Shown: positions 1 to 32,000, counted from the first letter of the stretch. The stretch is 32,000 nucleotides of DNA from Candidatus Saccharimonadota bacterium (GCA_965227835.1 OZ245768.1:450001-482000); one strand, 5' to 3'. Translations and numbers: made by a program. Notes: a model not told the origin generated them from the letters alone.

Positions 1-208
1 ACCATTCAAGTCAGGAATCATCTTCTATTCTTTCATCTAAAAGAGTTTTTATTTCTTTTAATTTTTCCTTTATTTCAGTATTTGCTTCCAGATTTCAAAT
101 TTCTATATTGTCTGATTCTCAAGAATTATTGAGTCACCCTGGATTTTCTAAGCTATTTTTTAATAGACTTTTAAAGACATTAATCTCTGTTTTTATTAAA
201 TTAAACAT
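1..208 (-). CDS. hypothetical protein, N-terminal part (gene continues beyond the left edge)
   Basis: Minus-strand ATG at complement of 206-208. Open to the window edge under table 25, with 4 in-frame TGA. Starts MFNLIKTEINVFKSLLKNSLENPGGLNNSGESDNIEIGNLEANTEIKEKLKEIKTLLDERIEDDSGLEW. No family recognised. Confidence 0.4.
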
Positions 209-361
209 AATTTTTATTTTAAAATATTATTATTTTTATAATTTTAACATAAATGTATGTAATAAGTCAAAAATTTACTTAGATTTTTTTGATGTTCTCC
301 AAATCTTGCTTTTTAGAAAAAATTAATATGATTTTATAAAATATAAAAAATTCATATTTTA

Positions 362-2695
362 ATGACTAATTTGGAAAAAATATTACAAGAAAACTTTTGA
401 CTGGAAAGTTTTAGAGAATGACAAAAAGAAATTTGTGAGAGTGTTATTTCTGGGAAAGACACTCTTGTTTTTATGCCTACTTGATGATGAAAATCTCTTA
501 CTTATCAGCTTCCATGACTTGTACTTGATTGACTGGTTGTAGTAATCTCTCCTCTTATATCACTTATGAAAGATCAAGTTGATAGCCTTACAGAAATATG
601 AATAAAAGCAAAACTTATAAACTCAACAATAGACTCAAATGACATATCCCTTATTTTATCTGAACTTGAAAACTCTACTTCAAATCCAATAAAATTTTTA
701 TACATAGCTCCCGAAAGACTTAACTCACCTAAATTTTTAAATGTAATAAACAGATTAAAAGTAGCTTTGGTTGCAATAGATGAAGCTCATTGTATAAGCC
801 AATGGGGTCATGATTTTAGACCAAGCTATATGAAAATACTTGGTTTTTTAAATAGCTTGAAAACTAAAGATAATTTCCCAACAATAGCTCTCACTGCTAC
901 TGCTACTAAAAAAGTGAGAAATGACATAATAGAAAGACTTGATATATCATGAGCAAATATCTTTACCAAATGATTTGATAGAAAAAATATAACCATAATT
1001 GTCAGAGAAATATCAGAAAAACAAAAGAAATTTTGAAAGGTTTTAGAAATATTGGATAAAACAAAATGATCAGGGATAATTTATTGTTCTAGTAGAAAAT
1101 CAGTGGATGAGGTATATGAACTTATGCAAGATTATCGTGTAAAAGCTGGAAAATATACATGAGCTATGACCCCAGAACTTAGAGAAGAAATGCAGAATAA
1201 ATTTATGAATTGAGAATACAAAGCGATAATAGCAACTAATGCTTTTTGAATGTGAATTGATAAAAAAGATATAAGGTTTGTAATCCATTTTAATCTTCCT
1301 GGGAGTATAGAAAATTATTATCAAGAAATAGGTAGGTCTTGAAGAGATTGAGAAAATAGTTTTGCTGTAGCTTTAGCTAGTTATTGAGACACAAAAATAC
1401 AAGAGTTTTTTATAGAAAATACTTACCCTTCCAAAGAAGAAGTACTTAAATTATATGATTATTTATATAGAGATTTCAAAATATGACAGTGAACAAATCA
1501 TAGTATATCTATGACTTTACACCAGCTAGCTAGTCATAGCTGAATACAAAATGATATGAGAGTTTGAAATATTATAAAGATACTTGATAAATACAATATA
1601 CTATCTAGATGAGTTAGTGATAGTGATAGGGAAGAGGGATTTAGATGAAAATGACTTGTTTTATTGCAAGAAAAAAGAAATCATAGCCATATACTTATTG
1701 ATTGGAAAAAACAAGATTTATTGAAGGATGAAGCTTATTTTAAACTTGAACAAATAAAAAGATTACTTTTTTATCCAAGTTGTAGAAAAAGATTTATTTT
1801 AGAATATTTTTGAGATGAAGAAGACCTTCAAAGTCTTCCAGAGAATTGTGGAGCATGTGATTTTTGTATTGATAGAAAGAAATTTGAAAAATCTCCTTCA
1901 AAAGAATTAATACCTGTCTCTACATTTGTTTTAATTTTGGAAACCGTAAAAAAATATGATGAAAGGTTTTGACAGGTACTTATTAGAAAAACTCTTGAAT
2001 GAAGTGAGGATAAAAAATTAATTCAAAATAAGCTAGATACATGGGATCATTATTGAGCTTTGTCTAATTATTCTAGAGATGCTATTTCAGCAATGATAGA
2101 TTCTCTTAGATTTGAATGATATTTATACAAAACAAATTGAACTTACCCTATGGTTTGAATAACAGAACTTTGATCTGCCGTTATAGTTAGAAATAAAGCA
2201 TTAAAAGAGGCACTTGAGGAATTAAATACTTATGTAGTTTGAAAAGTTTGACTTAATATTCATAAAAGTAAATCATCTAAATCTAAAAGTGTCAAGAAAA
2301 ATAATAAAAATATTTCAAATAATGACAGTGATACTTACAAGCAAACCTTAATTTTAGTAAAAGGTTATTTTTCTTATGCTTCTCAAAAAGGTTTAAATAT
2401 TTCCAGTAAAGAATTAATTGACTATGTATCAAAAAATAGATGATTTTGAACAAGTACTATAGAATGACATATAGCAAAACTTTATGATGATTGAGAATTG
2501 GGTTTAGTGGAAATTTTAAAAATAACTTCTTTATCTAATATAAAAAAAATTAAAGAAGTTATAAATGATAAGCTTTCTTGAGATGTTGAACTTTTGAAAC
2601 CTATTAAAGAAGAACTTGAAAATAGCTGAAATAAAGATATATGATACTTTGATATAAAAATAGCTTTAACTATGATGAAAAAATGAGATATATAA
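362..2695 (+). CDS. recQ: ATP-dependent DNA helicase RecQ (777 aa, long C-terminal extension)
   Basis: ATG at 362, TAA at 2693-2695, open only if TGA is a sense codon. N-terminus [77 protein letters not shown] box [20 protein letters not shown] (this is the 767-952 fragment in the ORF track). Zn-finger-like ENCGACDFC. Three consecutive TGA at 482-490 encode the Walker-A GGG. Confidence 0.9.
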
Positions 2696-2721
2696 GTTTA
2701 AGGGGCTCCTTAAGTATTAGA

Positions 2722-2741
2722 CAAGGGGTCTTGACCCCTTG
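2722..2741. terminator. GC-rich palindromic hairpin CAAGGGGTCTTGACCCCTTG between convergent recQ and ychF
   Basis: 7-bp G/C-rich stem with a 6-nt loop in AT-rich surroundings, 27 nt after the recQ stop. Followed by CCTTGCAAAA-type short repeats (2739-2785). The same core occurs at 16517-16536 and 18756-18775. The U-tract is weak. Confidence 0.45.
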
Positions 2742-2980
2742 CAAAACCTTGCTCTTTTGCAAAACCTTGACTCCTTGCAAAGTCCTTTTTTCTCACAAAT
2801 CTCTAATGCTTTCTTGTTAGGAATTATTTAAAAAGTTAATATTTTTATCATATATTTTTGATATTATTTCATTATCTAAAAAGATATTTCTACTATAGTA
2901 AACTAACTTGTGGGTTATCTTACTATATATGATGAATAAACTTGGTAACCTTTTTCAAAAAAATAAACTTCTTACAAGAT

Positions 2981-3192
2981 CAAAGGGCTAAAGTCCTCTG
3001 TTGACAAACAACAAAAAATTGTTTTCTAGATTAAAATTGTGTTTTAAGATATTCTAACCTGCAAGTTAATTTACTATAAATAATTTTTCAGGTGTTTTTA
3101 AAAAATAAAAATTCATTTTTCAACAGAAGGCTTTAGCCTTTTGGAATTCAAAACAATACTTCTTTTTTAAACAGAAGACTTTAGCCTTTTAA
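2981..3192. repeat. three copies of a REP-like hairpin element (consensus about TCAACAGAAGGCTTTAGCCTTTTGG)
   Basis: Copies at 2981-3005 (inverted orientation, caaagggctaaagtcctctgttgac), 3121-3144 (caacagaaggctttagccttttgg) and 3169-3192 (aaacagaagactttagccttttaa). The core AAGGC-NNNN-GCCTT stem extends to about 8 bp with G-U pairs. Confidence 0.6.
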
Positions 3193-3228
3193 AGTATAAA
3201 GACATAAAAATCCTCTGTACAAAAATTT

Positions 3229-4311
3229 TTAATTATTAAATTTAAAAAGAAGCACATCTCAATCTTTTACTACATATTGCTTTCATTCTAAACTTACCTT
3301 TCAAGCTTCACGAGCTCCTGACCATCAATTGTAAGATATTAAATCCTCCCAAGATACTCTATCTGCTTTTATAAATCATTTTTCAAAATCAGTGTGTATT
3401 ACTCAAGCTGCTTTTGGTGCCGTATCTCATTTTTTTATTGTCCAAGCTTTTACCTCCTTTTCTCATGCTGTAAAATAATACATCAATCCTAAAGCCTCAT
3501 AAGAAGCTTTTATTAAATCATCAAGTCCTGTAGAATTTAATCACATATCATTTAAAAAATCTATTCTTTCTTGTTCGCTCATTTCTATCATATCTGATTC
3601 AAGTTTCGCACAAATAGGTATCACTTTTTGATCTTTTGAAACTCAAATCAAATTTCTTAACTCTTCTTTTGATATATTCATCATTTCTTCTGATACATTA
3701 CAAGCATAAATAAAAGTCTTATTTGTAAGTAAATGTAAATCCTTTATCACTTCCAATTCTTCTGGAGATAAATCTATATTTATAGCTAAAACTCACTTGG
3801 ATAAATCTTCTAATATCTTTTTATATGTTTGAACTGCAAAATATATATCTTTATCACTCTTAGCTTTCCTTTCATCATTTAATATTCTTTTATTTACTGT
3901 CTCTATATCAGCCATTATAAGTTCTGTGTTTATTATATCTATATCTGATTTTGGATTTATATTTCAGTTAACATGTATTATATCTTTATCTTCAAATACT
4001 CTTACAACTTGAAGAATAGAATCAACTTCTCTTATGTGAGATAAAAATTTATTACCCAATCACTCTCAAACACTAGCTCATTTTACTATACCAGCTATAT
4101 CTGTAAACTCACAAGTAGCAGGAACGATTTTTTCTCAGTTTACAACTCATCTTATTTTTTCCAGTCTATCATCAGATACATTTACGATTCAAACATTGGG
4201 TTCTATAGTACAAAATGGAAAGTTTTGTGAATCTGCTGAGTAGTTTTTAGTCAAAGCATTAAAAAGTGTGGATTTTCAAACATTTGGTAATCATACTATT
4301 CCTATTTTCAT
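3229..4311 (-). CDS. ychF: ribosome-binding ATPase YchF (360 aa)
   Basis: Reverse-strand translation [109 protein letters not shown]-terminus [13 protein letters not shown] then stop. Length 1083 nt, divisible by 3. The P-loop glycines are TGA. Confidence 0.92.
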
Positions 4312-4550
4312 AATATCTTATTTTTAAAAAATTTTTAAAAAATTATATAAAAATAGATTTTTAAATCAAAAAAGAAAGAATTATTTTATAGTATTGGCTT
4401 ACAATAAGCTTTATTTCATATTTTTATGTTTGACCGTACAAAATATTTATACAAAATTTTGTAGAGCTATTCAAAAAAGTTTAGACAATAAAAAAATCCT
4501 ATCTTTTCTTTATATATAGGTATTATTTGTTGATTATTTTATTAATTAAT

Positions 4551-4645
4551 TCAAAGCATTATATTTGACAAATTTAATTAAATAATTATAATGGAATAAT
4601 ATCAAAGCATTATATTTGACAAATTTAATTAAATAATTATAATGG
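4551..4645 (+). promoter_or_regulatory. tandemly duplicated sigma70-like promoter (two 44-bp copies)
   Basis: tcaaagcattatatttgacaaatttaattaaataattataatgg occurs at 4551-4594 and identically at 4602-4645. Each copy has TTGACA (4565-4570, 4616-4621), a 16-nt spacer and TATAAT (4587-4592, 4638-4643). It lies about 50 nt upstream of the ATG at 4697. Confidence 0.5.
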
Positions 4646-4696
4646 TGTTATGCTATAATAATTTATAGTAAAATTTATTTTTTTAATTTTAATTTT

Positions 4697-5512: not shown

Positions 5513-5569
5513 ACTCTTTTGAAAATAATATTATAGTAGCTTTGCTTTATTATATAAAATATATATCAA

Positions 5570-6751: not shown

Positions 6752-6774
6752 TTATCTAAAGAATTATGTTTTTC

Positions 6775-8662: not shown

Positions 8663-9280
8663 TTATTTTAAATTTAATTTTTTAGTTAATTCTAAAAATA
8701 CTTCTTCTATGCTTTTATCAGCATCTATGGATAATATTTTTCACTCACTTTTTTGTATTTCAACTATAGGTAGGGTTTTTTCTTCAAATTCAGATATTCT
8801 TTTTAGAATAGAGTTTTTATTTTTATCATCATCTCTTTTTACAAGTTTTTTTCAAGTTTTTGGGTTTATTTTAGTTCAAGCAGGGAATGTTTCTCAGGTT
8901 TCATCATCATACATTCTTCAAAATAATCTTTCCTTAGCTTTTTCCACAGATATTTCAAAAAATATAGTTTTGTAGTTTGGTATCATACTATCAAATATTT
9001 CTTTATTCCAAGAGTTTCTTATAAATGAATCAAATATAACTTTGTCTTTTTCTTTGTATTTAAGAATAATTTTCTCCATTATAGGTTTTCACAAATCTGA
9101 GTTTATTTGACAACCAGAATCCATTATTTTTTTTAATTTTTTTCATGTTTTATTTCAAGAGCTTATTATTTTTCTAAATTCTCATCACATTTCTACTAAA
9201 CTAAAATCGTATTTTTCTGCTAAAATTCTTGCTTGGGTTCATTTTCAACATCATTGTATTCATGTAAAAACTATATGCAT
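8663..9280 (-). CDS. adk: adenylate kinase (205 aa)
   Basis: MHIVFTGIQGCGKGTQARILAEKYDFSLVEMGGEFRKIISSGNKTGKKLKKIMDSG, ending SIEEVFLELTKKLNLK. Four P-loop glycines are TGA. 618 nt. Confidence 0.9.
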
Positions 9281-9342: not shown

Positions 9343-9713
9343 AATGCAAGAGTAATAAGCCGGATTTTGTATCTAGGCATCAATCTATCTAGGTTTATTG
9401 TCACCAATAAACTCAAGCTTGGTATATTTTTTTGAAGCGATAGGGAATAATAACTTCAAAGAAATACCATTCCAATTGCACCACATAAGGTTTACCGAGT
9501 CATTGACTACATTTGTAGCAAGTGTATTACACCAAATGTCTTTTCATCTTTTGGAAGTATAGGATACTTCTTAGTATTGTTTCTGTGGCACTGGCTGTAT
9601 CTATATTTTATTTTTTATTTATATAGACCGTAGTGGTTATCTACTATGCTATTCCCATGGTGTCCAGACTTTCCTCTACTCCAAATTAAGGAAAGGCTGA
9701 AGAATTACTTCGT
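9343..9713 (-). ncRNA. rnpB: RNase P RNA, bacterial type A
   Basis: A local GC-rich island. The reverse strand contains GAGGAAAGTCTGGACACC (P4 5' strand/CR-I, complement of about 9658-9680), CGGTAAACC, AGCTTGAG...CCTAGATAGATTGATGCCTAGATACAAAATCCGGCTTATTACT (P15-P18 and the P4 3' strand, compare E. coli ACAGAACCCGGCUUAUC). AGTAAT/ATTACT can form P1. The ends are approximate. Confidence 0.85.
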
Positions 9714-9900: not shown

Positions 9901-10080
9901 TGTTTTTTGCAATTTTTATGCTTATAAACTTTCTCAGACGTTAGTGATAAAAAATATTAAAAAACAAAAAATTAGATTCTCTTTTTTTTAATTTAAATTA
10001 TTTATTTTTGATATTCATCAAAAATAAATTAATATTCAAAATAAGATTTTAGTATATTAAAATATAACTGAATAAATTTT

Positions 10081-10864
10081 ATGATAATACAAGAAATTAT
10101 GAGTACATCATTATTGGAGCTTACAGCTTGATTTTGATACCTTATAGGGCATTTTCTTCTTTCAAAAAAACATATTTTAGGTTGGGTTATAAAAATTATT
10201 TGATGAACAGCTTGGATTGTATTTCTATTTCAAAATGATAATTACTCAAAACTACCCAGTTTTTATAAAAAGTATACCTATATTTTAGTTTAAATAAAGG
10301 TAAATTAAGCTATTTTTAGTGTTTTATCTTTAGTATTTTATAAATGACTTATTTAAGCTAACTTTATCTTTATAAAATTCAATCAATATAAAATCTCTGT
10401 TTTTACTTATATAAAGGTAAAAAATAAAATATAAAATACAAAAAACTAGGTAGATTTGAGATAATTATATATTTGGAACAGTAACAGTTGTTGTGGTAAT
10501 GACAATGATTTATGGTTTTTATAAATGGAAAATATGAAAAACTGATAAAAGAACAAATATTGATAAGTTTTTTGAATTTCTTGCAATTGCTGTTGCAATT
10601 TTTATGATTACAAGATTTGTAATTTCTGGTGTTTATAGCTTAGCTCCAGTTTTTGAAACTATTATTGTTATAGCAGAGATATTTTGAACAATGATGCTGG
10701 CTCGTAAAAAAATAATTGGTTGGTATAGTTATTTTGTAATGAGTGTTTTGGCAAGTAGTCTTGTTATATTCATAAATCCAAATCCAGCTTTAATACTTTG
10801 AATTTTAGAATTATCTTCACTATATTTTTACTATAATTGAATTAAAAACTTTTCTAAAAAATAA
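10081..10864 (+). pseudogene. pnuC: pnuC-like nicotinamide riboside/NMN transporter, interrupted by a 214-bp MITE
   Basis: The N-terminal piece 10081-10293 (MIIQEIMSTSLLELTAGFGYLIGHFLLSKKHILGWVIKIIGGTAWIVFLFQNDNY...) runs into a TAA inside the insert. The C-terminal piece is in another frame (..DNYIFGTVTVVVVMTMIYGFYKWKIGKTDK...IAEIFGTMMLARKKIIGWYSYFVMS..., TAA 10862-10864). Deleting 10246-10468 restores one 186-aa ORF. Confidence 0.7.
10246..10459. mobile_element. non-autonomous MITE-like insertion (214 bp) with 22-bp imperfect TIRs and a 9-bp TSD
   Basis: Left end tcaaaactacccagtttttata versus the reverse complement of the right end tcaaatctacctagtttttgta, 19/22 identical. Flanking direct repeat gataattac (10237-10245) / gataattat (10460-10468). 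No ORF inside. Confidence 0.7.
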
Positions 10865-13055: not shown

Positions 13056-13934
13056 ATGAAGAAAAAAATATTAAAGATATTTTCACATAGTAGAGACAAA
13101 TATAAAAATTTATATCAGAATTTATTTGATAAAAAAGACATTGAAATAACAGTAAAAAATTTTTCTGAATTTTATTTTCATAATTGAGAAATACTATCAT
13201 TAAATAATAATAAAAAATTTAATGAAAAAGATTTTGATCTATTATGGCAAACAATAAGTACTCCTTTTGCAAAAGCATTTTTTCTTATAAATAAAGACAA
13301 AGATATTTATATAATAGATAAAAAAAACTATGAAAAAACTTTTTATCAAAACAACAAATTAAACCAATCTATAATACAAAGAAAAAATAATATAAATAGT
13401 ATTGATGATTTATACTTTTTAATAAATTTAGATGAGTTTAATATTGTCAAATATGAAAAAATAATAGTTGAAAAATTATGATTACCTGTTGTAGCTAAAG
13501 AAGTAAATTGAAATAGAGGTGAAGCTGTATTTTTAATAAATACAAATGAAGAATTAAAAAATATTATATTAAAATATAATAAGAATAATGAATGAATAAT
13601 GTTTCAAAAATTTGAAAAAAATGATTGAGATTACAGAGTTATATTTTTCAAAAATAAATATGTATGATGTATGAAAAGGAAATCAGACAATTTTTTAAAT
13701 AATGTTTCTTCTTGATGAGAGACTGAAAAAGTAGAATTAAATGAAGAAATAATTGAAAAATTGAGTAAAATAACGGATTTTTTTTGATTAGATATAGTAT
13801 GAATAGATATATTTATTGATAATAAATGAGAATATAAAATAATAGAAGTAAACGACACCCCTCAATTATTTTGATTTTCAAAATTATTTCCTAAAGAAAT
13901 AGAAAAATATTTTAAATCTGTTTTTTTAAATTAA
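13056..13934 (+). CDS. RimK-type ATP-grasp ligase (292 aa)
   Basis: LGLPVVAKEVNGNRGEAVFLINTNEEL, IMFQKFEKNDGDYRVIFFKNKYVGCMKRKSDNFLNNVSSGGETEKVEL and FFGLDIVGIDIFIDNKGEYKIIEVNDTPQ match the RimK/glutathione-synthetase-like ATP-grasp motif order. Confidence 0.8.
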
Positions 13935-13940
13935 CATCAA

Positions 13941-14516
13941 ATGAAAAATTACATAATATGATATTGAAGTATAATAAATATAAAAAATGCTTGTTTGACT
14001 TCCAAAGTATGAGATTTTTTACCAATTAATGTTAATTGATTCGAGAGATGATGGAATACATTATGAGCTCAATGATATGTTGTATTATGAGTAAAAAAAG
14101 ATATAAATTCCGATATGAATTGAATATTAATTGAAGTATTAGAAAATATAAAAGATTTTGATAAAAGAGAGATAATGTATAACAGAGAAAAAGTTGAATA
14201 TCAAGATATAAAAGCTTTCAAATGAGATATACTACCAAAATGAAATTATTATATTTATTTACCTAAAAATAATAAACTAATCCCAAATAAGGCTCCAATA
14301 TTACAAAGTTATTTAGATGTAGTTATCAAATGATGTTTAGACATATCAGAAGAGTTTGCATATGATTTTATGAAAAAAACTGTAAATTGGAGGTCTATAT
14401 TAAATGATAGAGAAAATCCTAAATATGTTAGAAGCATGGATTTAAAAAAATACCATCATAAATTAGATGAAATATTAAAAATAAAACTCTCCCCCAAAAA
14501 CTTCCCAAAATGTTAA
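13941..14516 (+). CDS. gamma-glutamylcyclotransferase-fold protein (ChaC/GGCT-like), 191 aa
   Basis: Starts 6 nt after the ATP-grasp stop. N-terminal MKNYIIGYGSIINIKN (YGSL-type motif), VNGFERGWN, and FDKREIMYNREKVEY (candidate catalytic Glu region). Confidence 0.62.
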
Positions 14517-18821: not shown

Positions 18822-18946
18822 TTTATCTATCTTTGTTTTATTCCCCCTCCTGTTCTATACTCTCTGTTCTGTTCCCTCTCCTTTAAGGAGAGGGTTAGGG
18901 TGAGGTATTTCCAAAGAAGAGGGCTAGGGTGAGGTCTTGCGAAGAG
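18822..18946 (-). repeat. GC-rich composite element Y, left copy (inverted relative to 20306-20370)
   Basis: ttccctctcctttaaggagagggttagggtgaggtat (18871-18908) contains a CCCTCTCC/GGAGAGGG hairpin plus TTAGGGTGAGG. A second half-site gagggctagggtgaggt is at about 18919-18935. The upstream arm ttttatctatctttgttttattccccctcctgttct also matches the partner. Confidence 0.6.
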
Positions 18947-18972
18947 AATTTAGTATAAATAAACAAAAAAAA

Positions 18973-20277
18973 ATGAATATAAAAAATTTAATAGCACTTG
19001 ATAACCCCTTTAGGTTACTATATCATAAAGTAAGAGCAATAATTGCAAATATATATTATGGTTTTCCTAGTAAAAATATGAAAATAATAGGAGTAACTTG
19101 AACAAATTGAAAAACCTCTACATGTAATATCATAGCCAAATGATTAATAGAAAACTGAGAAAAAGTTTTTATGTTTTCAACCGTAAACATAATAATGTGA
19201 GATCAAGATATTACCAATGAAACCAAACTTACAAGCCCTGATGCTTTCCTGTTACAAAAATTGTTAAAACAAGCAAAAAATAAATGAATAAAAACAGCAA
19301 TAATAGAAACAGCCAGTCATGGTATAAAAATGCATAGAATATGGTGATTAAACTATGATACAGTAATTTTGACAAATATAACACAAGATCATTTAGATTT
19401 ACACAGAACTATGGAAGATTATGTAGAAACGAAACTAGAAATATTTAAAAAATTAATAAGTTATAGGAGAAAAAAATGAATAAGAAAAACATCAATAATA
19501 AATATAGACAGTGATTACTATAAACTATTTGAAGAAGAAACTTATGACTCTCAATATAAATATTGAAAAAACTACAATGCAAATGTAAAAATATCGGATA
19601 TAAAAAATACCAACTCATGATTAGAATTTAGCTTAAAAGCAGCTTGAGATACTTTCAAACTTAAAAGTAAGTTAATATGAGAATTCAATGTATACAATAT
19701 AGCAGCAGCAGTTTCTGTATTTATATCTGAATGAATAAAAAAAGAAATAATAGTAAAAACTATAAGTAAACTTAAATGAATCCCTTGAAGATTAGAAGAA
19801 GTAGAAACAAATGATAATTTTAGAGTTTTTATAGATTATGCACATACACCAGATGCACTTGATAAAGTTATAAAGACATTTAATGATATAAAATGAGATT
19901 GAAACTTGACCGTAGTTTTTGGAGCTCCTTGAGATAGAGATAAATCAAAAAGACCTATAATGGGACAAATTGTGTCTTCTTTAGCTGATAAAGTAATATT
20001 AACCCAAGATGATGATTATACAGAAGATACAATCTCTATAATAAAAGATGTTTTACTGGGAATAGAAAGAAAAGAAGGAGATAATTTTTGGGTTATACCA
20101 GGTAGGGAAGAGGCTATAAGGACTTCTCTTGTAGGTGCTAAGAAAAATGATATTATACTTATAGCAGGTAAGGGAGACGAACATTCACTTATCACAAATA
20201 ATTGACCAATAGAATGGCACGATAGGACAATAGTAGAAGAAATTTTAAAATCTATAGATGATAATAAAGTAATATAG
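18973..20277 (+). CDS. murE: UDP-N-acetylmuramoyl-L-alanyl-D-glutamate-amino acid ligase MurE (434 aa, short N-terminus)
   Basis: IIGVTGTNGKTS (residues about 38-49), IIETASHG, LTNITQDHLDLH, GEFNVYNIAAA, IPGRLEEV, FIDYAHTPDAL, VVFGAPGDRDKSKRPIMG, ADKVILTQDDDYTED, ILIAGKGDEH. In frame with ORF-track fragment 19960-20205. Confidence 0.88.
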
Positions 20278-20641: not shown

Positions 20642-22072
20642 ATGACTCTTTATCTAAAATACAGACCAAAAGATTTTGAAAGCCTTATAGGACAAGATTT
20701 TATAAAAAATACATTAAAACAAGCAGTAAAAGATAATAAAACTGTTTGAGCTTATCTTTTTTGTTGACCAAAATGAACCTGAAAAACATCCACAGCAAGA
20801 ATTTTAGCGAAATCCGTAAATTGCAAAAATTTAGTAGAGTGAAATCCTTGCAACAAATGCGAAACCTGTATTTGAATAAATACTGAAAGCTTAATTGATG
20901 TAGTTGAAATAGATGCTGCAAGTAATACTTGAGTTGATAATATAAGAGAGATAATATCAAAAGCTAATTTCAAACCCACAAGTTCTAAATATAAAATTTA
21001 TATAATAGATGAAGTACATATGCTTAGTATTTGAGCTTTTAATGCTCTTTTAAAAATACTTGAAGAACCACCAGAATTTATAAAATTCATACTAGCAACC
21101 ACAGAAACACATAAAATCCCTGATACAATTATATCAAGATGTCAAAGGTATGATTTTAAAAATATATCAAGCCAAGATCTAAAAGAAAAACTTTTACAAA
21201 TATCAAAAGAAGAAAAAGTAGATATAGAAGAACAAGCATTGGAATATATAGTAAATTCTTCAGCTTGAGCTGCAAGAAATGCTATATCTCTTTTTGAGCA
21301 ATTAATAATAGACAATAAAGTAACATATAAAAACCTAGAAGAAAATCTATGACTATCCTCAAAAAATCTATTAAAAGAATTTTTGAATAAGCTTTTAGAA
21401 AAAGACTTTACTGTAATAGATGATTATGAGATTATTTTAAATTCATGAAAAAATATAAAACTCTTTTTTAAAGATTTAATATTTTATACAAAAAATTCTA
21501 CTGTAGAGAAAATAAAACTATGAGAAAAAAATATTTCCTCCAGTATAAAAATACTTGAAATACTTGATGAAACTTATTCAAAAACTAAAAACTCTCTTGA
21601 TGAAACAACTACATTTCTAATATGAATATTAAAAATATTAGAAGAAAATTGAGATTTTGAATTACTAACTTCAATAAAAAAAGAAATACCAAAAATTGTA
21701 AAAGAAGAACAAGATAATATAGAAGAAATTTCCAAAAAACAAGATACGATTAAACAAAGCTTAAATATAGAAGATATATGAGAAATATTTTCTGATTCAA
21801 AACAACCAGAAGATAAAAATCAAGAAATTTGAGATAAGAAACCAAGTTTTGATAAAGAAAATTTTCTAAAACAACTGAAAACTAATTGAGTGAAATGATT
21901 AATAGTTTCTAGTTTAAAACAATCAGAAATAAATTTAGATTGAAATGAGTTAAAAATAAAAATAAAAACTGAATTTGTTAAAAGACAACTTGAAACTGCT
22001 GAAAATATAAAAATAATTAAAAATATACTTGAAGAAATAGGATTAGGACACATAGAAGTAAAAATAAACTAA
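20642..22072 (+). CDS. dnaX: DNA polymerase III subunit gamma/tau (476 aa)
   Basis: [61 protein letters not shown], Zn module [49 protein letters not shown] at 22070-22072. Confidence 0.9.
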
Positions 22073-22076: not shown

Positions 22077-23048
22077 ATGTATTGTTTAGTTTCTACATTC
22101 AACAAAACATTTGATGAACTTGGTCTTTTATATTTTGTGCCAAGTTTTTTAGAAGGAAAATTAAAAACATGACAAATAGTTGAAATACCTTTTTGAAATA
22201 AAATAGAAATAGCTTTAGTTTTAGAATTGTGAGATTTGGAGAAACTAAATGCTTCAAATATTCCTGAAGAAAAAATAAAATCGGTAATATCAATAAAAAA
22301 TGAAAATATATTTTTGAATTCTAATCAAATAAAACTAGTAAAATTTTTATCAAGCTATTATATAACCCCCATACACCATTGTTTATCATTATTTTTCCCA
22401 AAAAATCTTGTAACTAATATAAACAAAGACAAATTAGAAATAAATGATAAAGATGATATAGTCTACGGTTTTTTATTTGATAAAATTTTATCAGAAAAAC
22501 AAAATATTGTATTTGAAGAAATAAATAAAGATTATAAAAAAACAGATAATAATAGATTTTTATTACATTGAACAACGGGTAGTTGAAAAACTGAGATTTA
22601 CATAAAGCTTATTAAAAATCAGCTTGATTTAGGTAAACAAAGTTTGCTTTTAATACCAGAAATAGTTTTAACAAATCAACTGGAATTTAGGATAAAAGAA
22701 GTTTTTTGAAAAGATGTTTTGACTATAAACTCATCAATAACTGATTTATCAAAAACCAAAGCTTGGATTTCTATATACAATTGAGACTCTAAGATAATAA
22801 TATGAACTAGGTCAGCTCTTTTTTATCCTTATAATAATTTGGGATTAGTAATAATTGATGAAGAGCATGATTCATCATACATTTCAGATGTTTCTCCTAG
22901 ATATAATAGCATTAAAGTTGCTAGGAAAATAACAGAGTTAAATTGAAATAAGATGCTTTTAGCAAGTGGTACACCTAGTGTTATTAGTATGTATAAAGCA
23001 TTAAAAGGGGAGTATAAGCTTTTAAAATTATTTGAAAAATGGAAGTAG
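22077..23048 (+). CDS. priA: primosomal helicase PriA, N-terminal 323 aa only (truncated or split)
   Basis: [19 protein letters not shown] (Walker A), [12 protein letters not shown] (DExH), [31 protein letters not shown] then TAG at 23046-23048. The Cys-rich zinc region and the second RecA lobe are absent from this window. Confidence 0.8.
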
Positions 23049-23101: not shown

Positions 23102-23980
23102 CTAATATTGGTTTATTTCTTTCATCTTTTTTTTAAACTCATCTAAAAGTCTATTTCTTATTTCTTCTCAAAAATAATGTCATATTTCGTGAAATTTTTC
23201 TTCTAACTTTTTATCAATTTTATACCACTCAATTTCTATTTCTTTCTCAGAAACTCAAATATTTTTCATTAAATTTAATTCTTCCACTTCTTCTAGAAAA
23301 TTTTCCATGAATTTACAAAAAAATACATTTGCTAATCCATCTAATTCTTTTTTTACGCTAAAATCTCTTTTTGTTCTTCAAATTCAATACCTATTTATAA
23401 ACTCTTTTTTTTGATCATTTAATATTTTATCATCTATAATTTCATTTCCGAAATCTTGTAAATAATCTAGAAATTTATAGATATTTGTATAGTGTTTAAT
23501 ATCTTTTCAATTATATATTATTCCTCATACTATTTTTGTAGAATTTTTATCTATTTCTTTTAGTATATTTATTAAATTATTTATAGGAATTCAATTCAAA
23601 ACTAAATTTAATCATACATATTTTAGATTTGGTAATTCTTTAATAGGTGTTTTTGATATTATCATATCTCATTCAACATTTTCTAAATCTGGTAAATATT
23701 CTATTTCATTTCATCCTAAATCTAAATAGCCTCTAATTCTTTTAAAATATTTTAAATTCTTTATAAAAAGTGAGCTTGTTAAATCAAGTTGTTGTCCCCA
23801 ATAAATTCAATCTAAACTTCAATCATCATTAAATTTAGTGTATTCTTCTAATTTTTCCCAAAAAATAATACCCATTGATTCTTCAACCATTTTTTCATAA
23901 TCTTTAAACTCTTTAGGAGTTAAATTTTTTCTCAAATTTTCTTTAGGAGTATAACAATACTCTTTTTTTTCTAAACTCAT
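23102..23980 (-). CDS. LRR-family paralog A (292 aa, about 4 LRRs)
   Basis: Verified codon by codon. MSLEKKEYCYTPKENLRKNLTPKEFKDYEKMVEESMGIIFWEKLEEYTKFNDDGSLDGIYWGQQLDL...GYLDLGGNEIEYLPDLENVEGDMIISKTPIKELPNLKYVGLNLVLNGIP...KKEFINRYGIGRTKRD...GVSEKEIEIEWYKIDKKLEEKFHEIGHYFGEEIRNRLLDEFKKKMKEINQY. No TAA/TAG in frame. Confidence 0.85.
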
Positions 23981-24017
23981 TTTTTAATTATTAAAATTTA
24001 TAACTATATTTTTGGAT

Positions 24018-26405
24018 CTAATTTTGGTTTATTTCTTTCATCTCTTTTCTAAATTCATCTAGGAGTCTATTTTTTATTTCCTCTCAAAAATAATGTCATA
24101 TCTCGTGAAATTTATTATCTAGTTTCTCATCAATTTTATATCGTTCAACCTCTATTTCTTTCTCAGAAGCTCAATCATTTTTCATTAATTTAATTTTCTC
24201 TACTTCAGTAATAAAATTATCCATGAATTTATAAAAAAATATATTTGCCAATATATTTAATTCTTTTTTAGTTTTTTCATCTCTTTTTGCTCTTCAAATT
24301 CAGTACCTATTTATAAATTCTTTTTTATTATCATTTAGTATATTATCATATATGGTTTTATCTCTAAAATTTTCAAGATAGTTTAGAAAGTAATATATAT
24401 CAATATAATTTTTAAACCCCGTTCAGTCATATATAGTTTTTCATCATATTTTTATAGGTCTTTCTATTATTTCTTTCAATAAACTTTCTAAAATATTTTT
24501 TGGAATTCAGTTTAAAATTAAATCTTCTCAAACTTCTTCTAATTTTGGTAAAATTTCAATATAAGTTCAAGTTAAATCTAGATTTCCTCATACATATTTC
24601 AATTTTGGTAAATCTTTTATAAAAGATCAATTTAAATTTAAATCTCATTGTACATATTCCAACTCTGGTAGATTTCTTATTTTATGTTTTTTTGATAAAA
24701 TAGAACCTACAGTTTTTAATTTTGGTAAGCTTTCTATAAAGGTTAAAGTTAAATTTAGATTTCCTCATACATACTCCAATTTTGGTAAACTTTTTATAGA
24801 ACTTCATTCTAATCTTAAGCTAAATCAAACTTTTTCTAATTTAGGTAGACTCTTTATAGGATTCCCTACCAAATGTAGATTACTTCAAACACTTTTTAAT
24901 TCTGGTAAGCCTTTTATACATTTTCAATTTAATCATCATCAAACTTTCTTTAGTTTTGGTAAACTTTCTACTTTACTTAAATACAGACTTAAACTTCATT
25001 TAACATATTCTAGATTTGGTAAACTTGTGATAAATTCTGAATTTAGTTTTAACCTTCAAAAAATTTTTTTTAAATATTTTAAATTGCTTATAGGTTTTCA
25101 CATCAAATCTAAATCTCATTTCCAATAAATTCAATCTATAAATCATTTTTTATTAAATCTAGTAAAGTCTTCTAATTTTTCCCAAGAAATAATCCCATCA
25201 GATTCCTCAACCATTTTCTCATAATCATTAAATTCTTCAGGATTTAATTTTTGTTTTAAATTTTCTTTAGAAGAAAGTTTATTTTCATTTAAATTGTTTT
25301 TTTCAATAATTAAATTTAATTCCTTAATTTCTTTTTGAAACTCATCTAAAAATCTATTTTTTGTTTCTTCTCAAAAGTAATATTTTATTTCATGAAATTT
25401 AGTATCTAGTTTTTCATTGATTTTTTTATTTAATTCTTCTTGAGAAATTCAGTTTTCTATCATCAAACTTATACTCTCTCTGTATTTTAAAAAATTTCTT
25501 GTAAAATTAATATAAATTATAGTCACAATAGTATTTAATTCTTTTTTTATACTATCATCTCTTTTTGATTTTCAATCTCAATATCTATTTATAAATTTTT
25601 CTTTAAAAGATTCTAATAATTTATCATCTATATTTTCATCTTCAAAATTTTCTATATAACTTAAAAAATTATTTCAACTTATATAAGAGTTGAGCTCCAT
25701 TCAATCATATATTATTTTTCATCATATTTCAGGAGAATTTTTCTTTATTTCTTTTAATATATTTTTTAAACTAATTTTTGGAATTCAGCTTAAATCTAAA
25801 TCACTTCAAACATATTTTAATTTTGATAAATTTTTTATAAAGGTTCAATTTAAATTCAAAACAGCTCAAACATATTTTAAATTTGGTAAACTTTTTATAG
25901 AGCTTTTATTTAAATTTAAATGAAATCAAACATATCTTAAGTTTTGCAAGTTCTTTATATAATTTTCTCTCAAAAATAAACTTCATCAAACACTTTTTAA
26001 TTTTTGTAAATACTTTATATTTTTTCAACTTAAACCTCCTCAAACTTCTTCTAATTTTGGCAAACTTTCTACTTTGCTAAAATACAAGCTCAAGCTTCAT
26101 TTTGTATATTCTAGATTTGGTAAACTTTTAATAAACTTTGAATCTAGTTTTAATTCTCAAAAAACTTTTTTTAAATATTTTAAATTGCTTATAGGTTTTC
26201 ACATTAAATCCAAATCTCATTCCCAATAAATTCAATCTATGCTTCAATCATAATTAAATTTGCTATATTTTTCTAATTTTTCCCAAGAAATAATCCCATC
26301 AGATTCTTCAACTATTCTTTCATAATCTTCGAAATCTTCAATATTTAGCTTTTTTCTAAAATTTTCTTTAAAAGAATTATTATTTTCAATTTTATCTAAA
26401 CTCAT
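24018..26405 (-). CDS. LRR-family paralog B-C: in-frame fusion of two complete modules (795 aa, about 8 + 11 LRRs)
   Basis: Verified codon by codon over all 2388 nt. Module 1: MSLDKIENNNSFKENFRKKLNIEDFEDYERIVEESDGIISWEKLEKY...FHEIKYYFGEETKNRFLDEFQKEIKE. It joins without a stop via LNLIIEKNNLNENKLSSKENLKQKLNPEEFNDYEKMVEESDGIISWEKLEDF to module 2, which ends KFHEIGHYFGEEIKNRLLDEFRKEMKEINQN. Confidence 0.85.
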
Positions 26406-26442
26406 TTTTTAATTATTAAAACTTATAACTAGAACCTTTAAT

Positions 26443-27747
26443 CTAATTTTTATTTATTTCTTTTATTTCTTTTCTAAATTCATCTAGAAATCTATTTTTT
26501 ATCTCTTTTCAAAAATAATGTCATATTTCGTGAAATTTTTCTTCTAACTTTTTATCAATTTTATACCATTCAATTTCTATTTCTTTCTCAGAAACTCAAT
26601 TTTTTTTCATTAGAGCTATCTTTTCCCTATATTTTAAAAAGTTTTTTACAAATCGTGTATAAAATAAATTAAACATTATATTTAAAATTCTCTTTACTTT
26701 ATCATCCCTCCTTGTTCTTCAAGTTCAATATATGGTTATAAATTCTTTTTTATAACTAGATATTAATTCTTCACTCATAAGCTCATTTTCAAAATTTTCT
26801 AAATAACTTAGAATACTTTTTCAATTTAAGTAAGGTTTAAAATCTATTCAATCATACATTATTTTTCACCATACTTCTGTATTATTTTCTCTTATTTCGT
26901 TTAATATATTTACTAAATTACAACTTGGAATTAAACTCAAATATAAATTCCCTCAAATTTTTTCTAATTTTGGCAAACTTTCAATATGGTTTCAGCTTAA
27001 GTATAAGTCCTCTGAAATTTCTTCTAATTCGGGTAAACTTTTTATAGAGGTTCATCTTATATCTAAACCTCAATAAACATTTTTTAATCTAGGTATACTT
27101 TTTATAGGGGTTGAATTTAAATTTAAATCTCATAAAACTATTTCTAATTTTGGTAAATTTTTTATATATACAAAGGCTAAAAATAAATTTCATTTAACTT
27201 TTTTTAATCTAGGTATACTTTTCATAGTAGTTGAATTTAAATTTAAATAAAATCAAACTTCTTCTAATTTTGGTAAGCTTTTTATATTGGTATAACTTAA
27301 ATCTAATTCTCTTGATACATATTCTAATTTTGGTAAACTTTTTATAGCTGATCATTTAAAATATGCTTCTCATAAAACTTTTTCTAAGTTTGGTAAACGT
27401 TTTATAGGGGTTTTCTGTAAATCTAAAAAACCAAAAACATTTTTTAAATAAGATAACTTTTTTATAGATGTTTCATATAGATATAAACATCATTTAATTT
27501 CTTTTAGTTTTGATAAACTTGTTATAGGCTTATAATTTAAATTTAAATCTCATTCCCAATAAATTCAATCTAATTTTCAATTGTCACGAAATCTACTATA
27601 TTTTTTCAGTTTTTCCCACGAAATAATCCCTTCAGATTCCTGAACCATTCTTTCATAGTCTTTGAAATCTTTATGGGTTAGATTATTTTTTAGATATTCT
27701 TCATAAATTGATTTTTGCTCGTTTGTTTTTGGAACATTTTTTGTCAT
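26443..27747 (-). CDS. LRR-family paralog D (434 aa, about 11 LRRs)
   Basis: Verified codon by codon. MTKNVPKTNEQKSIYEEYLKNNLTHKDFKDYERMVQESEGIISWEKLKKY. The LRR block has an exact 60-bp DNA period across about 26941-27570 (for example LPKLEEVGFYLNLNSTTMKSIPRLKKVKGNLFLAFVYIKN). C-terminus KFHEIGHYFGKEIKNRFLDEFRKEIKEINKN. Confidence 0.85.
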
Positions 27748-27783
27748 ATCTTATATTTTATGTATTAGATATTTTTATCTTGA

Positions 27784-27811
27784 ATAATAAAATTTTTGTT
27801 TTGTTTGTCAA
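27784..27811 (-). promoter_or_regulatory. putative promoter of paralog D (TTGACA-N16-TATTAT)
   Basis: Minus strand: TTGACA is the complement of 27806-27811 and TATTAT the complement of 27784-27789. About 37 nt upstream of the ATG at 27747. The same architecture occurs upstream of paralog F. Confidence 0.4.
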
Positions 27812-27861
27812 ATATAATGTATATATTAAATTTAATTTATAGTCAAGATTTAGAGTAAAAT

Positions 27862-27887
27862 AAAAAAACAAGTTTTAACTTGTTTTT
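27862..27887 (-). terminator. intrinsic terminator after the TrmB-family gene
   Basis: aaaaacaagtt/aacttgttttt perfect inverted repeat. On the minus strand it is followed by a T7 run. Confidence 0.5.
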
Positions 27888-27948
27888 CATAATTAATTTT
27901 TTACTCGAAATTTAAATATTTTTTCTAACTTTTATTTGTAGTATTTAA

Positions 27949-28674
27949 TTAATTATTCTTCAAAAACCTAAATAATAGTTTAAACAACTTTTTCTCAAAA
28001 TTAGAAAAAATTTGGCTTTCAATTATAAAACACTCTTCGGTGTTATAGTCTATAATTGCTACCTTATTTGCATAAATTATTTTAACTATATTGTCTTCAA
28101 ATATATCAAAATCTTTTGGAACTATAACAACTTCTTTTTCTAGTTTTTCTTTTTTTATATTCCTTAAATAATCATTTGTAATAACCATTCTTTCTAATTG
28201 TTTATTATCTCTGATTTTTTTATATTTACTATATTGATTCTCTGACATATTGGTTTTTCTAGAACTATATCTATAAAATATATCTCATTTATTTAAACTA
28301 TTTGCTATATCTAAAAATACATTTTTTACTCCACTTCTTCAAGATAAATGTTTAAATATTGGTTTTTTAAAATTATTTTGATATATACTTTGCAACTCTG
28401 GAATAAATAGTTTAAAATCACTTTTTATATTTTCAAAGTATGAATTTAAAATTAAGGGGTCTTCAGCTATAAAACATTTTCTCTTTCAAATTATTACTTT
28501 TGATATGATTCAATTTTCTTCCATTGAAGGAAGTATTTTATATAGCTTTGGCCTATTAATTCATAATTTAATAGATATATCACTTATATTCTTACTAGGG
28601 TTCTTTATTAAAAATAAATATATTTTTGATTCATCTGGTGTCAATCATAGTTTTTCTAATATTTTTTCTTTCAT
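27949..28674 (-). CDS. TrmB-family winged-helix transcriptional regulator (241 aa)
   Basis: MKEKILEKLGLTPDESKIYLFLIKNPSKNISDISIKLGINRPKLYKILPSMEENGIISKVIIGKRKCFIAEDP. The ORF-track fragment 27949-28248 is its C-terminal 99 aa, and the reading frame extends upstream through TGA codons. Confidence 0.75.
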
Positions 28675-28767
28675 TTTTAAATATGTAAATAAATATTACA
28701 ACTTTATTATATTTAAGTTTTATTTTTATTAAAGTCTTTTTTAGGTTTATTTATATTTTTATATTAC

Positions 28768-28779
28768 ATATACGTATAT
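28768..28779. promoter_or_regulatory. 12-bp perfect palindrome ATATACGTATAT in the divergent TrmB/PHP promoter region
   Basis: Seen directly. It lies between the divergent starts at 28674 and 28842 and is a candidate operator only. Confidence 0.25.
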
Positions 28780-28841
28780 TTTTTTACATATTTTGTAATT
28801 AGAACTATTATCTAAATACATTATTTTTTAATTTTATTTTT

Positions 28842-29765
28842 ATGTTTGATATGCATTTCCATTCTACTATATCAGATTGACATAGTACTACTGAACAAAT
28901 TTTAGATAAAGCATCTAGCTCAGGTTTAAATTTTGCTACTTTAACAGACCATGATTTTATAAGCCCTAAAGATTTTATAAAAAAGATAAAGTCGCTTTGA
29001 ATTGATTCTAAGTATTCTGTAGAAATATCTGCTAGGAATATAGATGTAAATAAAAATCTTCATCTAACTTGTTACTCAAATGATTTTTCTAAAGACATTT
29101 ATGATATTTTAGAAAATACTCGTTCTTGAAAGCAAAATATGGTTTTTTCTCAAGTTAAAAAACTTCAAGAAAAATGATTTAAAATAGAATATAATGATTT
29201 TATAGCTTATTTTGAATCTAAATGAAAAAGAAAAGATTCACTCAATAAGATTAGAATTGCAGAATTTATATTTTTGAATGATGAAAATATAAAACTAGCC
29301 AAAACTATTTCTTGAAATAATGATATAGATGTAATTTCTTTTCTTACAGGTTTTTTAAAAATTGGATGAAGTTTTCATAGGCAATATTGAATTGAATTTC
29401 CTGAATATGAACCTAATGTAGAATTATGTTGAGAGTTGGCAAAGTTTAATAATGCTATACTATCTATAGCCCATCCTAACTTTACTTTTGCAAGAGATCA
29501 TATTTCTGGTTTCAAAGATTCTTTACCTTACTATATAGATAGATGAGTAAATGCTATAGAAATAAGCTCTAAAGCTTCAATTAAATGGATAGAAGCTATT
29601 TATGAAGCAAAAAAAAGATATTGACTTATACTAACTGCTTGAAGTGATAATCATTGAATATGAATTGACGATAATAAACATGCTGATTTTTGAAATTTAA
29701 ATCCAAATTTATCTTTTGAAGATAAGAAAAATATTTTAAAAGAATTTTTGGAGTTTAAATATTAA
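28842..29765 (+). CDS. PHP-domain metal-dependent phosphoesterase (TrpH/YciV-like), 307 aa
   Basis: MFDMHFHSTISDGHSTTEQILDKASSSGLNFATLTDHDF, SIAHPNF, and LTAGSDNHGIG are the canonical PHP His/Asp motifs. TAA at 29763-29765. Confidence 0.8.
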
Positions 29766-29831
29766 TAATTCAAAGATTTTGCTTATAATGGTTATATCTA
29801 AAAAAATATATAGAAAAATTTCTATCTATTT

Positions 29832-30569
29832 TTAATTTGTTTTTCGTATAGCTCTTTGAAGTTCATCACAAATCCTATTTTTTATTTCTTCTCAAAAATA
29901 ATACTCTATATAATCAAGTTTTTCTTCTAATTTTTTATAAACTTCTTTAGCATAATTTTTTCTTTCTTCCTCGCAGACTCAATTATTTTTCATTAGATTT
30001 ATTTTTTCTATTTCTTTTAAATAATTTTCTATGAATTTATAAAAAAATACATTTGCTAATACATCTAATTCTTTTTTTACACTAAAATCTCTTTTTGTTA
30101 TTCAAATTCAATACCTATTTATAAACTCTTTTTTATGATTATTTAATATTTTATCATCTATAATTTCATTTCCGAAATCTTGTAAGTAAATTAAAAAATT
30201 ATAGATTTTTATATAAGAATTAATATCAATTGAATTAAACAAATTCATATAAGGTTCCATATTAATTCAATTGTACATAATTTTTAATCGTATTTTTTTA
30301 TTTATTACATCTATTATATTTATTAAATATGTTCTATTTATTATATTATTTAAATTATCTATAGGTATTCAGCTTAAATCTAAATCTCAGTAAATTCAAA
30401 TTAGAAATCAATGATCATAAAAAAAAGTATGTTTTTCTAATTTCTCCCAGGAAATAATACCTTTAGATTCTTTAACTATTTTTTCATAATGGTTGAATTG
30501 TAGAGGAAGTAACTTTCTTCTTAATTTTTCTTTCGAAGAAAAATAATTTTTTATTTTATTTAAAAGCAT
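29832..30569 (-). CDS. LRR-family paralog E (245 aa, one residual LRR)
   Basis: Verified codon by codon. MLLNKIKNYFSSKEKLRRKLLPLQFNHYEKIVKESKGIISWEKLEKHTFFYDHGFLIGIYGDLDLSGIPIDNL...KKEFINRYGIGITKRD...LDYIEYYFGEEIKNRICDELQRAIRKTN. Confidence 0.8.
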
Positions 30570-30612
30570 TTATTTAACTATTAAAATTATAATTTTTAAA
30601 TTATTTCTATTT

Positions 30613-31518
30613 TTAATTTGTTTTTCATATAGCTCTTTGAAGTTCATTACAAATCCTATTTTTTATTTCTTCTCAAAAATAATACTCTATATAATCAAGT
30701 TTTTCTTCTAATTTTTTATAAACTTCTTTAGCATAATTTTTTCTTTCTTCCTCGCAGACTCAATTATTTTTCATTAGATTTATTTTTTCTATTTCTTTTA
30801 AATAATTTTCTATGAATTTAACATAAAATATATTTATAAATAAAGACAATTGTTTTTTTACTATATTTGATCTTGCCATTTTTCAAGTTCAATATATGCT
30901 TATAAGTTCTTCTTTATAAACATTTATTAATTCTTTATCTATATCTTTATCTTCAAAATCTTGTAAGTAAATTAAAAAATTATAGATTTTTATATAAGAA
31001 TTAATATTCATTGAATTATAAATACCCATATAAGGTTTCATATTGGTTCAATTGTATATAATTTTTCATCATATTTTTACTTCTTTTTTACCTATTTCAT
31101 ATAGTATATTACTTAAAGTATCTATAGTTATTCAACTTAGGTCTAAATCTTTTCAAACATATTCTAAACCTTTCAAATTTTCTATAAGAGATCAGTTTAA
31201 ATATAAACTTCATTTAATAATTTTTGATATTATTAAATCTTTTATTTTAGAATTAGTTAAATATAAATCTCATGAAATACCTTTTAAAAGAACTAAAAAT
31301 TCTATCGATACTCAGCTTAAATCTAAATTTCATTCCCAATAAATTGAAATTAAAATTCAATCTTCATGAAAAATACTATATTCTTCTAATTTTTCCCAAG
31401 TAATTACACCTTTAGATTTTTCAATTATTTCTTTATAATACTTGAATCTGCTAGTAAGTAATTTTTTTCTCAACCTCTCTTCGGAAGAAAAATAATTTTT
31501 TATTTTATTTAAAAGCAT
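30613..31518 (-). CDS. LRR-family paralog F (301 aa, about 4 LRRs)
   Basis: Verified codon by codon. MLLNKIKNYFSSEERLRKKLLTSRFKYYKEIIEKSKGVITWEKLEEYSIFHEDGILISIYWEGNLDLSGVSIEFL...GSLYLNGSLIENLKGLEYVGKDLDLSGITIDTL...LDYIEYYFGEEIKNRICNELQRAIGKTN. Confidence 0.8.
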
Positions 31519-31554
31519 TTATTTAACTATTAATTACAGAATTATCTATTTTAG

Positions 31555-31582
31555 ATAATATATTTATTTTCTTATTTGTCAA
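31555..31582 (-). promoter_or_regulatory. putative promoter of paralog F (TTGACA-N16-TATTAT)
   Basis: Minus strand: TTGACA is the complement of 31577-31582 and TATTAT the complement of 31555-31560. About 37 nt upstream of the ATG at 31518. Confidence 0.4.
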
Positions 31583-31628
31583 GATTGCTTTTACCTTAAT
31601 AATACTATTTTAAAGACTTATAGAAATT

Positions 31629-31655
31629 AAAAAAATCTTCTAAAATATTAGAAGA
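31629..31655 (-). terminator. intrinsic terminator after the ABC-F gene
   Basis: tcttcta-aaatat-tagaaga hairpin (31636-31655). On the minus strand it is followed by T7 (complement of 31629-31635). Confidence 0.5.
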
Positions 31656-31682
31656 GTTCTAAAAAAATAATATCAAAAGATT

Positions 31683-32000
31683 TTATCTTTTATTCTTTCA
31701 AAACTTATCTTTCATTCTTTTAATTTGCCTATCACTTAGCTTTTCTTCTAAAACTAAATTAAGTTCGGCTTCATTATCAAATAAATTAAAATCCATATCT
31801 ATACCATTTTCAAGTTTAAATTTATAATCTTCATAATTACCATAAGAGACTGATAGTTCTCAATCACTTATAAACCATATATTCGTAGCTAGTTTATTTA
31901 CAAAATATCTATCATGAGATATAAAAAGTATAGTTCAGCTATATTTGGATAAACTATTTTCAAGAGCTTCTCTAGTATCGTAATCCATATGATTTGTAGG
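31683..32000 (-). CDS. ABC-F family ATPase, C-terminal part (gene continues beyond the right edge)
   Basis: PTNHMDYDTREALENSLSKYSGTILFISHDRYFVNKLATNIWFISDGELSVSYGNYEDY. This covers the Walker B/D-loop/H-loop region of the second ABC domain and the charged tail. TAA at 31683-31685. Confidence 0.8.

Follow-up and report, generated by a model that had tools for sequence, protein, structure and literature searches.

Translation of the UGA stop codon into glycine has been published since 2013 for SR1/Absconditabacteria as well as for Gracilibacteria (Campbell et al. 2013; Rinke et al. 2013; according to PMC8629427 and PMC13695967); it is a known phenomenon, has its own NCBI translation table (table 25) and is predicted automatically by current tools. 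Its hallmarks are a reduced genome, compositional bias, the loss of release factor 2 (RF2) and the presence of a tRNA-Gly(UCA) (PMC13695967), and the combination of these last two traits is reported to define the GTDB class JAEDAM01, which consists of the Absconditabacterales and BD1-5/'Gracilibacteria' (PMC13695967, PMC8629427). Proteomics of a BD1-5 bacterium confirmed the code, 97 peptides being unique to translation of UGA as Gly and 3 to translation as Trp (Hanke et al. 2014, PMC4032931). Shulgina and Eddy (2021) described UGA as Gly together with CGA and CGG as Trp in Absconditabacteria, and predicted CGG as Trp for some Gracilibacteria (PMC8629427). Here, we analyzed a stretch of 32,000 nt (in the following, the window), i.e., positions 450001–482000 of the single-contig genome OZ245768.1 (GCA_965227835.1, Candidatus Saccharimonadota bacterium), which has 1,489,121 bp and a GC content of 25.5% (23.2% in the window) and was scored 97.6% complete. 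From its sequence, this genome almost certainly uses the published UGA-to-glycine code. A preliminary description of the window had read UGA as glycine throughout (table 25), and open reading frames (ORFs), alignments, Pfam scores, a tRNA(UCA) and the lack of a match to the RF2 gene prfB all agree with it. Three things were established directly: which residue the codon corresponds to, the tRNA(UCA) and how it is conserved, and that searches for RF2 failed. Each gene call in the window and in the genome hinges on this table: table 11 yields shattered proteins, and table 4 would place tryptophan at hundreds of catalytic glycines.

Under the standard code (table 11), the longest ORF of the window that begins with a start codon encodes 111 amino acids (22236–22571), five ORFs reach at least 90 amino acids, and even from stop to stop the longest open frame has 187 codons. 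Greedy sets of non-overlapping ORFs covered 14.1% of the window with table 11 vs 83.5% with TGA as a sense codon (29% vs 87% genome-wide). The TGA-sense ORFs of the window had a median length of 301 and a maximum of 795 amino acids, and the 25 long ones considered in the following occupy 82.7% of it. The preliminary description, which had reported shattered genes with a longest standard-code ORF of 111 amino acids and long TGA-sense genes over about 85% of the window, was accurate on both counts, and the comparison of gene models by code that it proposed came out far in favor of the TGA-sense codes. TAA or TAG is the last codon of each of the 25 window ORFs and of each of the 1245 ORFs called in the genome. 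The longest frame free of TAA and TAG had 796 codons, compared with 125 ± 20 (maximum 206) in 200 simulations of the window that preserved its dinucleotide composition. Codes with TAG or TAA as sense codons were rejected, as they gave median ORFs of just 74 and 91 amino acids, respectively, vs 301 for TGA.

The in-frame TGA codons number 397 in the 25 window ORFs (4.5% of their codons) and 17,726 in the 1245 long frames of the genome, where in-frame TAA or TAG is essentially absent. If the standard code applied, these triplets would be selenocysteine codons, errors of sequencing or real stops in a genome that has decayed and is rich in pseudogenes. Such a reading, to which we return with the tRNA that lends it some support, is hardly conceivable in view of this excess of TGA over TAA and TAG, the position of TGA at invariant catalytic glycines, the same pattern in 40 relatives (41 genomes including this one, related up to order level) and the failure to find an RF2 that would terminate at UGA.

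Tables 4 and 25 yield ORFs of the same lengths and the same coding density. Since ORF structure cannot tell these codes apart, the identity of the residue was examined in three ways, against solved structures, YchF orthologues and Pfam domain scores. UGA as tryptophan, as in the Mycoplasmatales and several insect endosymbionts (table 4), accounts for the ORFs no worse than table 25, and the low GC content and small size of the genome resemble those of table 4 lineages. For the first test, RecQ, YchF, Adk, DnaA, MurE, DnaX and PriA from the window were translated with TGA as X and aligned each with its best homologue of solved structure in the PDB, all of these references coming from standard-code organisms. 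Glycine stood opposite 64 of the 106 aligned TGA sites and tryptophan opposite none; with a glycine background of 6.6% in the references, the binomial probability is about 1e-47. For the second, 72 YchF orthologues without in-frame TGA were collected from public genomes, the matches of the YchF scan being mostly from standard-code bacteria and the nearest named genes from Patescibacteria, Peribacteria and Peregrinibacteria. Sixteen of the 20 TGA codons in ychF fell into columns with glycine in at least 57 of the 72 orthologues, nine of these columns being glycine in 72 of 72, whereas the single invariant tryptophan column is a TGG codon and no TGA occupied a tryptophan column. Finally, on the same window ORFs, 20 of 21 Pfam domains scored higher with table 25 than with table 4, for example ADK (75.0 vs 45.1 bits), YchF-GTPase_C (124.7 vs 91.4), Helicase_C (85.4 vs 57.2) and DUF4012 (61.6 vs 33.8).

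The same seven genes carry TGA within their P-loop motifs. In recQ (362–2695, + strand; 777 amino acids, 44 TGA; PDB 1oyw, E=2.6e-80; Pfam DEAD, Helicase_C, RQC and RecQ_Zn_bind), three consecutive TGA at 482–490 encode the GGG of the Walker A motif MPTGGGKS, and 12 of 19 aligned TGA oppose glycine. The GTPase/ATPase gene ychF (3229–4311, − strand; 360 amino acids, 20 TGA; PDB 1jal, E=2.9e-102) has TGA at G7 (4291–4293) and G12 (4276–4278) of GLPNVGKS. Adenylate kinase (adk, 8663–9280, − strand; 205 amino acids, 14 TGA and 1 GGN; PDB 2rgx, E=2.3e-20) has four TGA in its P-loop GIQGCGKGTQ (9239–9262; G7, G10, G12 and G14), with 11 of its 14 TGA opposite glycine. In dnaA (14720–16141, + strand; 473 amino acids, 16 TGA; PDB 8btg, E=5e-76; Bac_DnaA 214.4 bits with table 25 vs 191.7 with table 4), the motif GDVGLGKTH contains TGA at 15212–15214, 15221–15223 and 15227–15229 (G165, G168 and G170). 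The ligase gene murE (18937–20277, + strand; 446 amino acids, 19 TGA; PDB 8w9z and 4bub, E about 1e-56 to 1e-58; Pfam Mur_ligase_M and Mur_ligase_C) encodes GVTGTNGKTS with TGA at 19099–19101 and 19108–19110 (G55 and G58) and GGA at G52. The clamp-loader tau/gamma gene dnaX (20642–22072, + strand; 476 amino acids, 19 TGA; PDB 1njf, E=3.2e-54; Pfam DNA_pol3_delta2) has TGA at 20765–20767, 20774–20776 and 20780–20782 (G42, G45 and G47) of GPKGTGKTS, and the N-terminal half of priA (22077–23048, + strand; 323 amino acids, 9 TGA; PDB 6dcr, E=2.8e-33) at 22569–22571 and 22584–22586 (G165 and G170) of GTTGSGKT, with GGT at G168. Thus, the motifs quoted in the preliminary description for these seven proteins were all found, including the three successive TGA of RecQ, and its statement that TGA falls on invariant glycines and not on tryptophans is borne out: in the alignments that it had called for, TGA hit glycine columns and never tryptophan columns.

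Codon usage tells the same. TGA makes up 4.22% of the codons in the genome, GGN 2.14% and TGG 0.64%; with TGA as Gly the proteome has an ordinary glycine content of 6.4%, whereas with TGA as Trp tryptophan would reach 4.9% of the residues and glycine 2.1%. Among 375 pairs of paralogues within the genome, the codon opposite TGA, where it was not TGA itself, was most commonly GGN. Together with the identity of the tRNA described below, the alignments and Pfam scores rule out table 4, and we regard tryptophan as a highly improbable meaning of UGA in this genome.

We next consider the decoding machinery. ARAGORN identified 37 tRNAs in the genome, none of them in the window. One of them, at genome positions 1264268–1264346, has the anticodon UCA, the acceptor pairs G1:C72, C2:G71 and G3:C70 and the discriminator base U73. 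These are the criteria by which Shulgina and Eddy recognize a tRNA-Gly(UCA) (PMC8629427); they agree with the tRNA-Gly(UCC) of the same genome and differ from its tRNA-Trp (84767–84841), which has the anticodon CCA, the pair A1:U72 and the discriminator G73. Of the 41 genomes searched, 40 (39 of the 40 relatives) contain this tRNA(UCA), with 80–99% identity; the anticodon loop CUUCAAC did not vary in the 30 copies read, and where the acceptor, anticodon and T stems differed, the changes were compensatory. ARAGORN labels the tRNA(UCA) by default as 'tRNA-SeC', which would speak for selenocysteine and, with it, for the standard code. However, its acceptor stem of 7 bp and short variable region of 4 nt are not of the selenocysteine type, no match to SelB exceeded the cut-off in the genome, and TGA accounts for 4.2% of the codons; selenocysteine was ruled out on these grounds.

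A single gene for a class-I release factor is present. With 432.6 bits it exceeded the cut-off for prfA, whereas with 248 bits it fell short of that for prfB, and none of the 41 genomes had a match to prfB over the cut-off. Both searches outside the window that had been put forward as checks, for a tRNA-Gly(UCA) and for the absence of prfB, thus turned out as the glycine code would have it: the tRNA carries the glycine identity set, prfA is there, and prfB had no match over the cut-off in this genome or its 40 relatives. This is consistent with the placement of the genome among Absconditabacteria/Gracilibacteria, as 40 of 40 relatives likewise lack a prfB match and 39 of 40 have a tRNA(UCA). 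The glycyl-tRNA synthetase (GlyRS; genome positions 189536–190930) is of the single-chain dimeric type, and glyQ was not found in the genome.

Several points weigh against a plain glycine assignment. About 40% of the aligned TGA sites oppose residues other than glycine; this appears to be ordinary divergence, because GGN-coded glycines in the same seven proteins stood opposite glycine at an equal rate (24 of 39). Model bacterial GlyRS uses C35 and C36 too as identity elements, so that the A36 of tRNA(UCA) would have to be tolerated. Searches of the genome returned no match to MnmG and none over the cut-off to MnmE, whereas MnmA was found; the xm5U34 pathway that usually confines U34 to codons ending in A or G, or in A alone, thus seems to be missing, and U34 may wobble to UGG. 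Among the codons that differ from TGG, TGA faced it most often in the paralogue alignments. Lastly, the evidence from this organism is that of the genome sequence, the peptide precedent being that of the BD1-5 bacterium (PMC4032931).

Some of these points could be accommodated if UGA were mainly glycine but ambiguous, with cross-reading of UGA and UGG as Gly or Trp through a U34 that is unmodified or weakly modified and wobbles to G. Potential ambiguity was raised by Shulgina and Eddy (PMC8629427), and the few peptides with Trp at UGA in the BD1-5 bacterium (3 vs 97; PMC4032931) as well as the failure to find MnmG and MnmE and the TGA/TGG partnership in paralogues could be taken in its favor. 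Nevertheless, conserved tryptophan columns are TGG and conserved glycine columns are TGA or GGN, with no mixing of the two, MnmA is present, and pairing of TGA with TGG in paralogues is expected from the mutational distance of one base. We attribute the pairing to this distance; some decoding ambiguity may still occur, and ambiguous decoding of this kind appears unlikely overall. As an observation in its own right, we note that an organism in which no MnmG, and no MnmE over the cut-off, was detected must keep UGA for glycine and UGG for tryptophan apart.

Under the glycine code, UGA would be decoded by a dedicated tRNA that has the anticodon UCA together with the acceptor identity set for glycine; the one GlyRS of the genome, a dimeric enzyme, presumably charges it. 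RF2, the sole factor that reads UGA as stop, appears to be missing, and with RF1 kept, genes end only at UAA or UAG. UGG is still tryptophan, read by the separate tRNA-Trp(CCA), and there would be some means by which U34 avoids the reading of UGG. Strong AT mutation pressure may then have made TGA the majority glycine codon, because no other glycine codon has as few G and C bases as TGA, which has just one.

In fact, TGA accounts for 66% of the glycine codons genome-wide and 77% in the window; it encodes 14 of the 15 glycines of Adk and all 12 glycines of an ORF of 191 amino acids (13941–14516, 12 TGA). The extent of this takeover of GGN varies by lineage within the recoded order: prfA contains 4 to 21 in-frame TGA in most genomes of the window's family, with zero in one genome, and 0 to 7 in two sister families.

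Outside the window, CGG very probably stands for tryptophan in this genome as well, a reading omitted from table 25. A tRNA with the anticodon CCG (713116–713192, − strand) has G73 and A1:U72 as in tRNA-Trp, whereas the discriminator is A73 in the three remaining Arg tRNAs. In-frame CGG is rare, with 146 occurrences genome-wide (3.5 per 10,000 codons). Its partners in paralogue alignments (n=215) were foremost TGG (78) and CGG (67), with AGA outside the top eight. CGG is the tryptophan codon of the aldehyde dehydrogenase motif PWNFP and also occurs at the KGW site of MraY, where the two structures shown have tryptophan and leucine, respectively. Translation of CGG as W raised the Pfam scores of Aldedh by 9.2 bits, of DDE_Tnp_1 by 6.8 bits and of WG_beta_rep by 31 bits (six CGG in the gene); that of MraY was unchanged, the CGG site lying outside the domain. 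The gene calls made here under table 25 stand, because the window contains no in-frame CGG.

CGA behaves differently. Its 218 occurrences genome-wide (5.2 per 10,000 codons) mostly face AGA in paralogues, without TGG as one of the top partners; five lie in frame in the window (18940–18942, 24141–24143, 26653–26655, 29844–29846 and 30288–30290). Neither a tRNA(UCG) nor a tRNA(ACG) was found in the genome by ARAGORN, nor among about 700 mostly spurious matches at relaxed thresholds, and CGA looks like an arginine codon without an obvious decoder. Compared with the code of Shulgina and Eddy, the Trp-type tRNA(CCG), the CGG codons at tryptophan sites and the rarity of CGG are shared, whereas CGA is not Trp-like here, giving a 'CGG only' pattern. 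Taken together, the code of this genome probably exceeds table 25 in three respects, i.e., UGA overtaking GGN, CGG as tryptophan via tRNA(CCG), and CGA being nearly unassigned with no detectable cognate tRNA. CGG as Trp in genomes of the BD1-5/'Gracilibacteria' type has so far been just a tentative computational prediction. In practical terms, table 25 probably mistranslates the rare CGG codons outside the window and, if so, public annotation with this table puts arginine in place of tryptophan at about 146 sites.

The identities of the window genes were checked against solved structures and Pfam. Besides the seven genes above and the ORF of 191 amino acids, they include a putative RNA methyltransferase (UPF0020/RMKL-like, PF01170; 7505–8662, − strand; 385 amino acids, 23 TGA), a MATCAP/DUF1704-like protein (PF08014; 11450–12916, − strand; 488 amino acids, 19 TGA), a RimK-type ATP-grasp ligase (13056–13934, + strand; 292 amino acids, 12 TGA and 1 GGN; PF08443 with 83.9 bits under table 25 vs 57.7 under table 4) and a DUF4012 protein (PF13196; 16579–18678, + strand; 699 amino acids, 30 TGA). 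Two pieces of a PnuC-like transporter lie in different frames (10045–10293 and 10454–10864, + strand), the second matching Pfam positions 56–150 of 175. The largest ORF-free gap of the window is occupied in part by a bacterial class A RNase P RNA (9348–9708, − strand; RF00010, 116.4 bits at a gathering threshold of 100, E=3.2e-35). Toward the end of the window lies an island of LRR-like paralogues on the − strand (23102–31518), with five members of 292, 795, 434, 245 and 301 amino acids called as table 25 ORFs (110 TGA) and a sixth cut by the window end (31683–32000, − strand). The six contain 113 in-frame TGA; four of them are without any Pfam family, and just faint matches to LRR and Recep_L were obtained. 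Within the island are also a TrmB-type regulator (27949–28674, − strand) and a gene with a PHP domain (28842–29765, + strand).

The gene priA, which adjoins this island, consists of two genes separated by 182 kb. The N-terminal half in the window (22077–23048) comprises the 3′ DNA-binding domain (3′BD) and helicase lobe 1 (TIGR00595 positions 1–165), and the C-terminal half at genome positions 654918–655955 (− strand) comprises lobe 2 and the Zn/C-terminal region (positions 170–487). The break at about position 160–170 of TIGR00595 is shared by 13 further genomes of this genome's family, where the two halves likewise lie at different loci. Thus, priA is a conserved split gene and was not truncated by the LRR-like island. 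A further observation outside the window concerns three tandem tRNA-like genes (256908–257207, − strand) with acceptor stems of 8 bp and no encoded CCA; two have anticodon loops of 8 nt, for which ARAGORN gave the four-base anticodons 'tttg' and 'ggaa', and the remaining one is another tRNA-Val(UAC), the second in the genome.

In comparison with known codes, this genome shares with table 4 lineages (Mycoplasmatales, Hodgkinia, Zinderia, Nasuia and others) UGA as a sense codon, the loss of RF2, low GC content and a reduced genome. It differs from them in the residue, which is glycine and not tryptophan, and in the tRNA(UCA), which is of the glycine and not the tryptophan type. With the table 25 lineages it has in common TGA at conserved glycines, the same acceptor set of the tRNA(UCA), RF1 kept with RF2 not found, a small genome of low GC content and UGG as tryptophan via tRNA-Trp(CCA). 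In a limited search of the literature on table 25, we found no statement on a majority share of TGA among glycine codons. All hallmarks listed for these lineages (PMC13695967) are seen in this genome, and no essential difference separates it from them, with TGA being here the majority glycine codon at 66% in the genome and 77% in the window.

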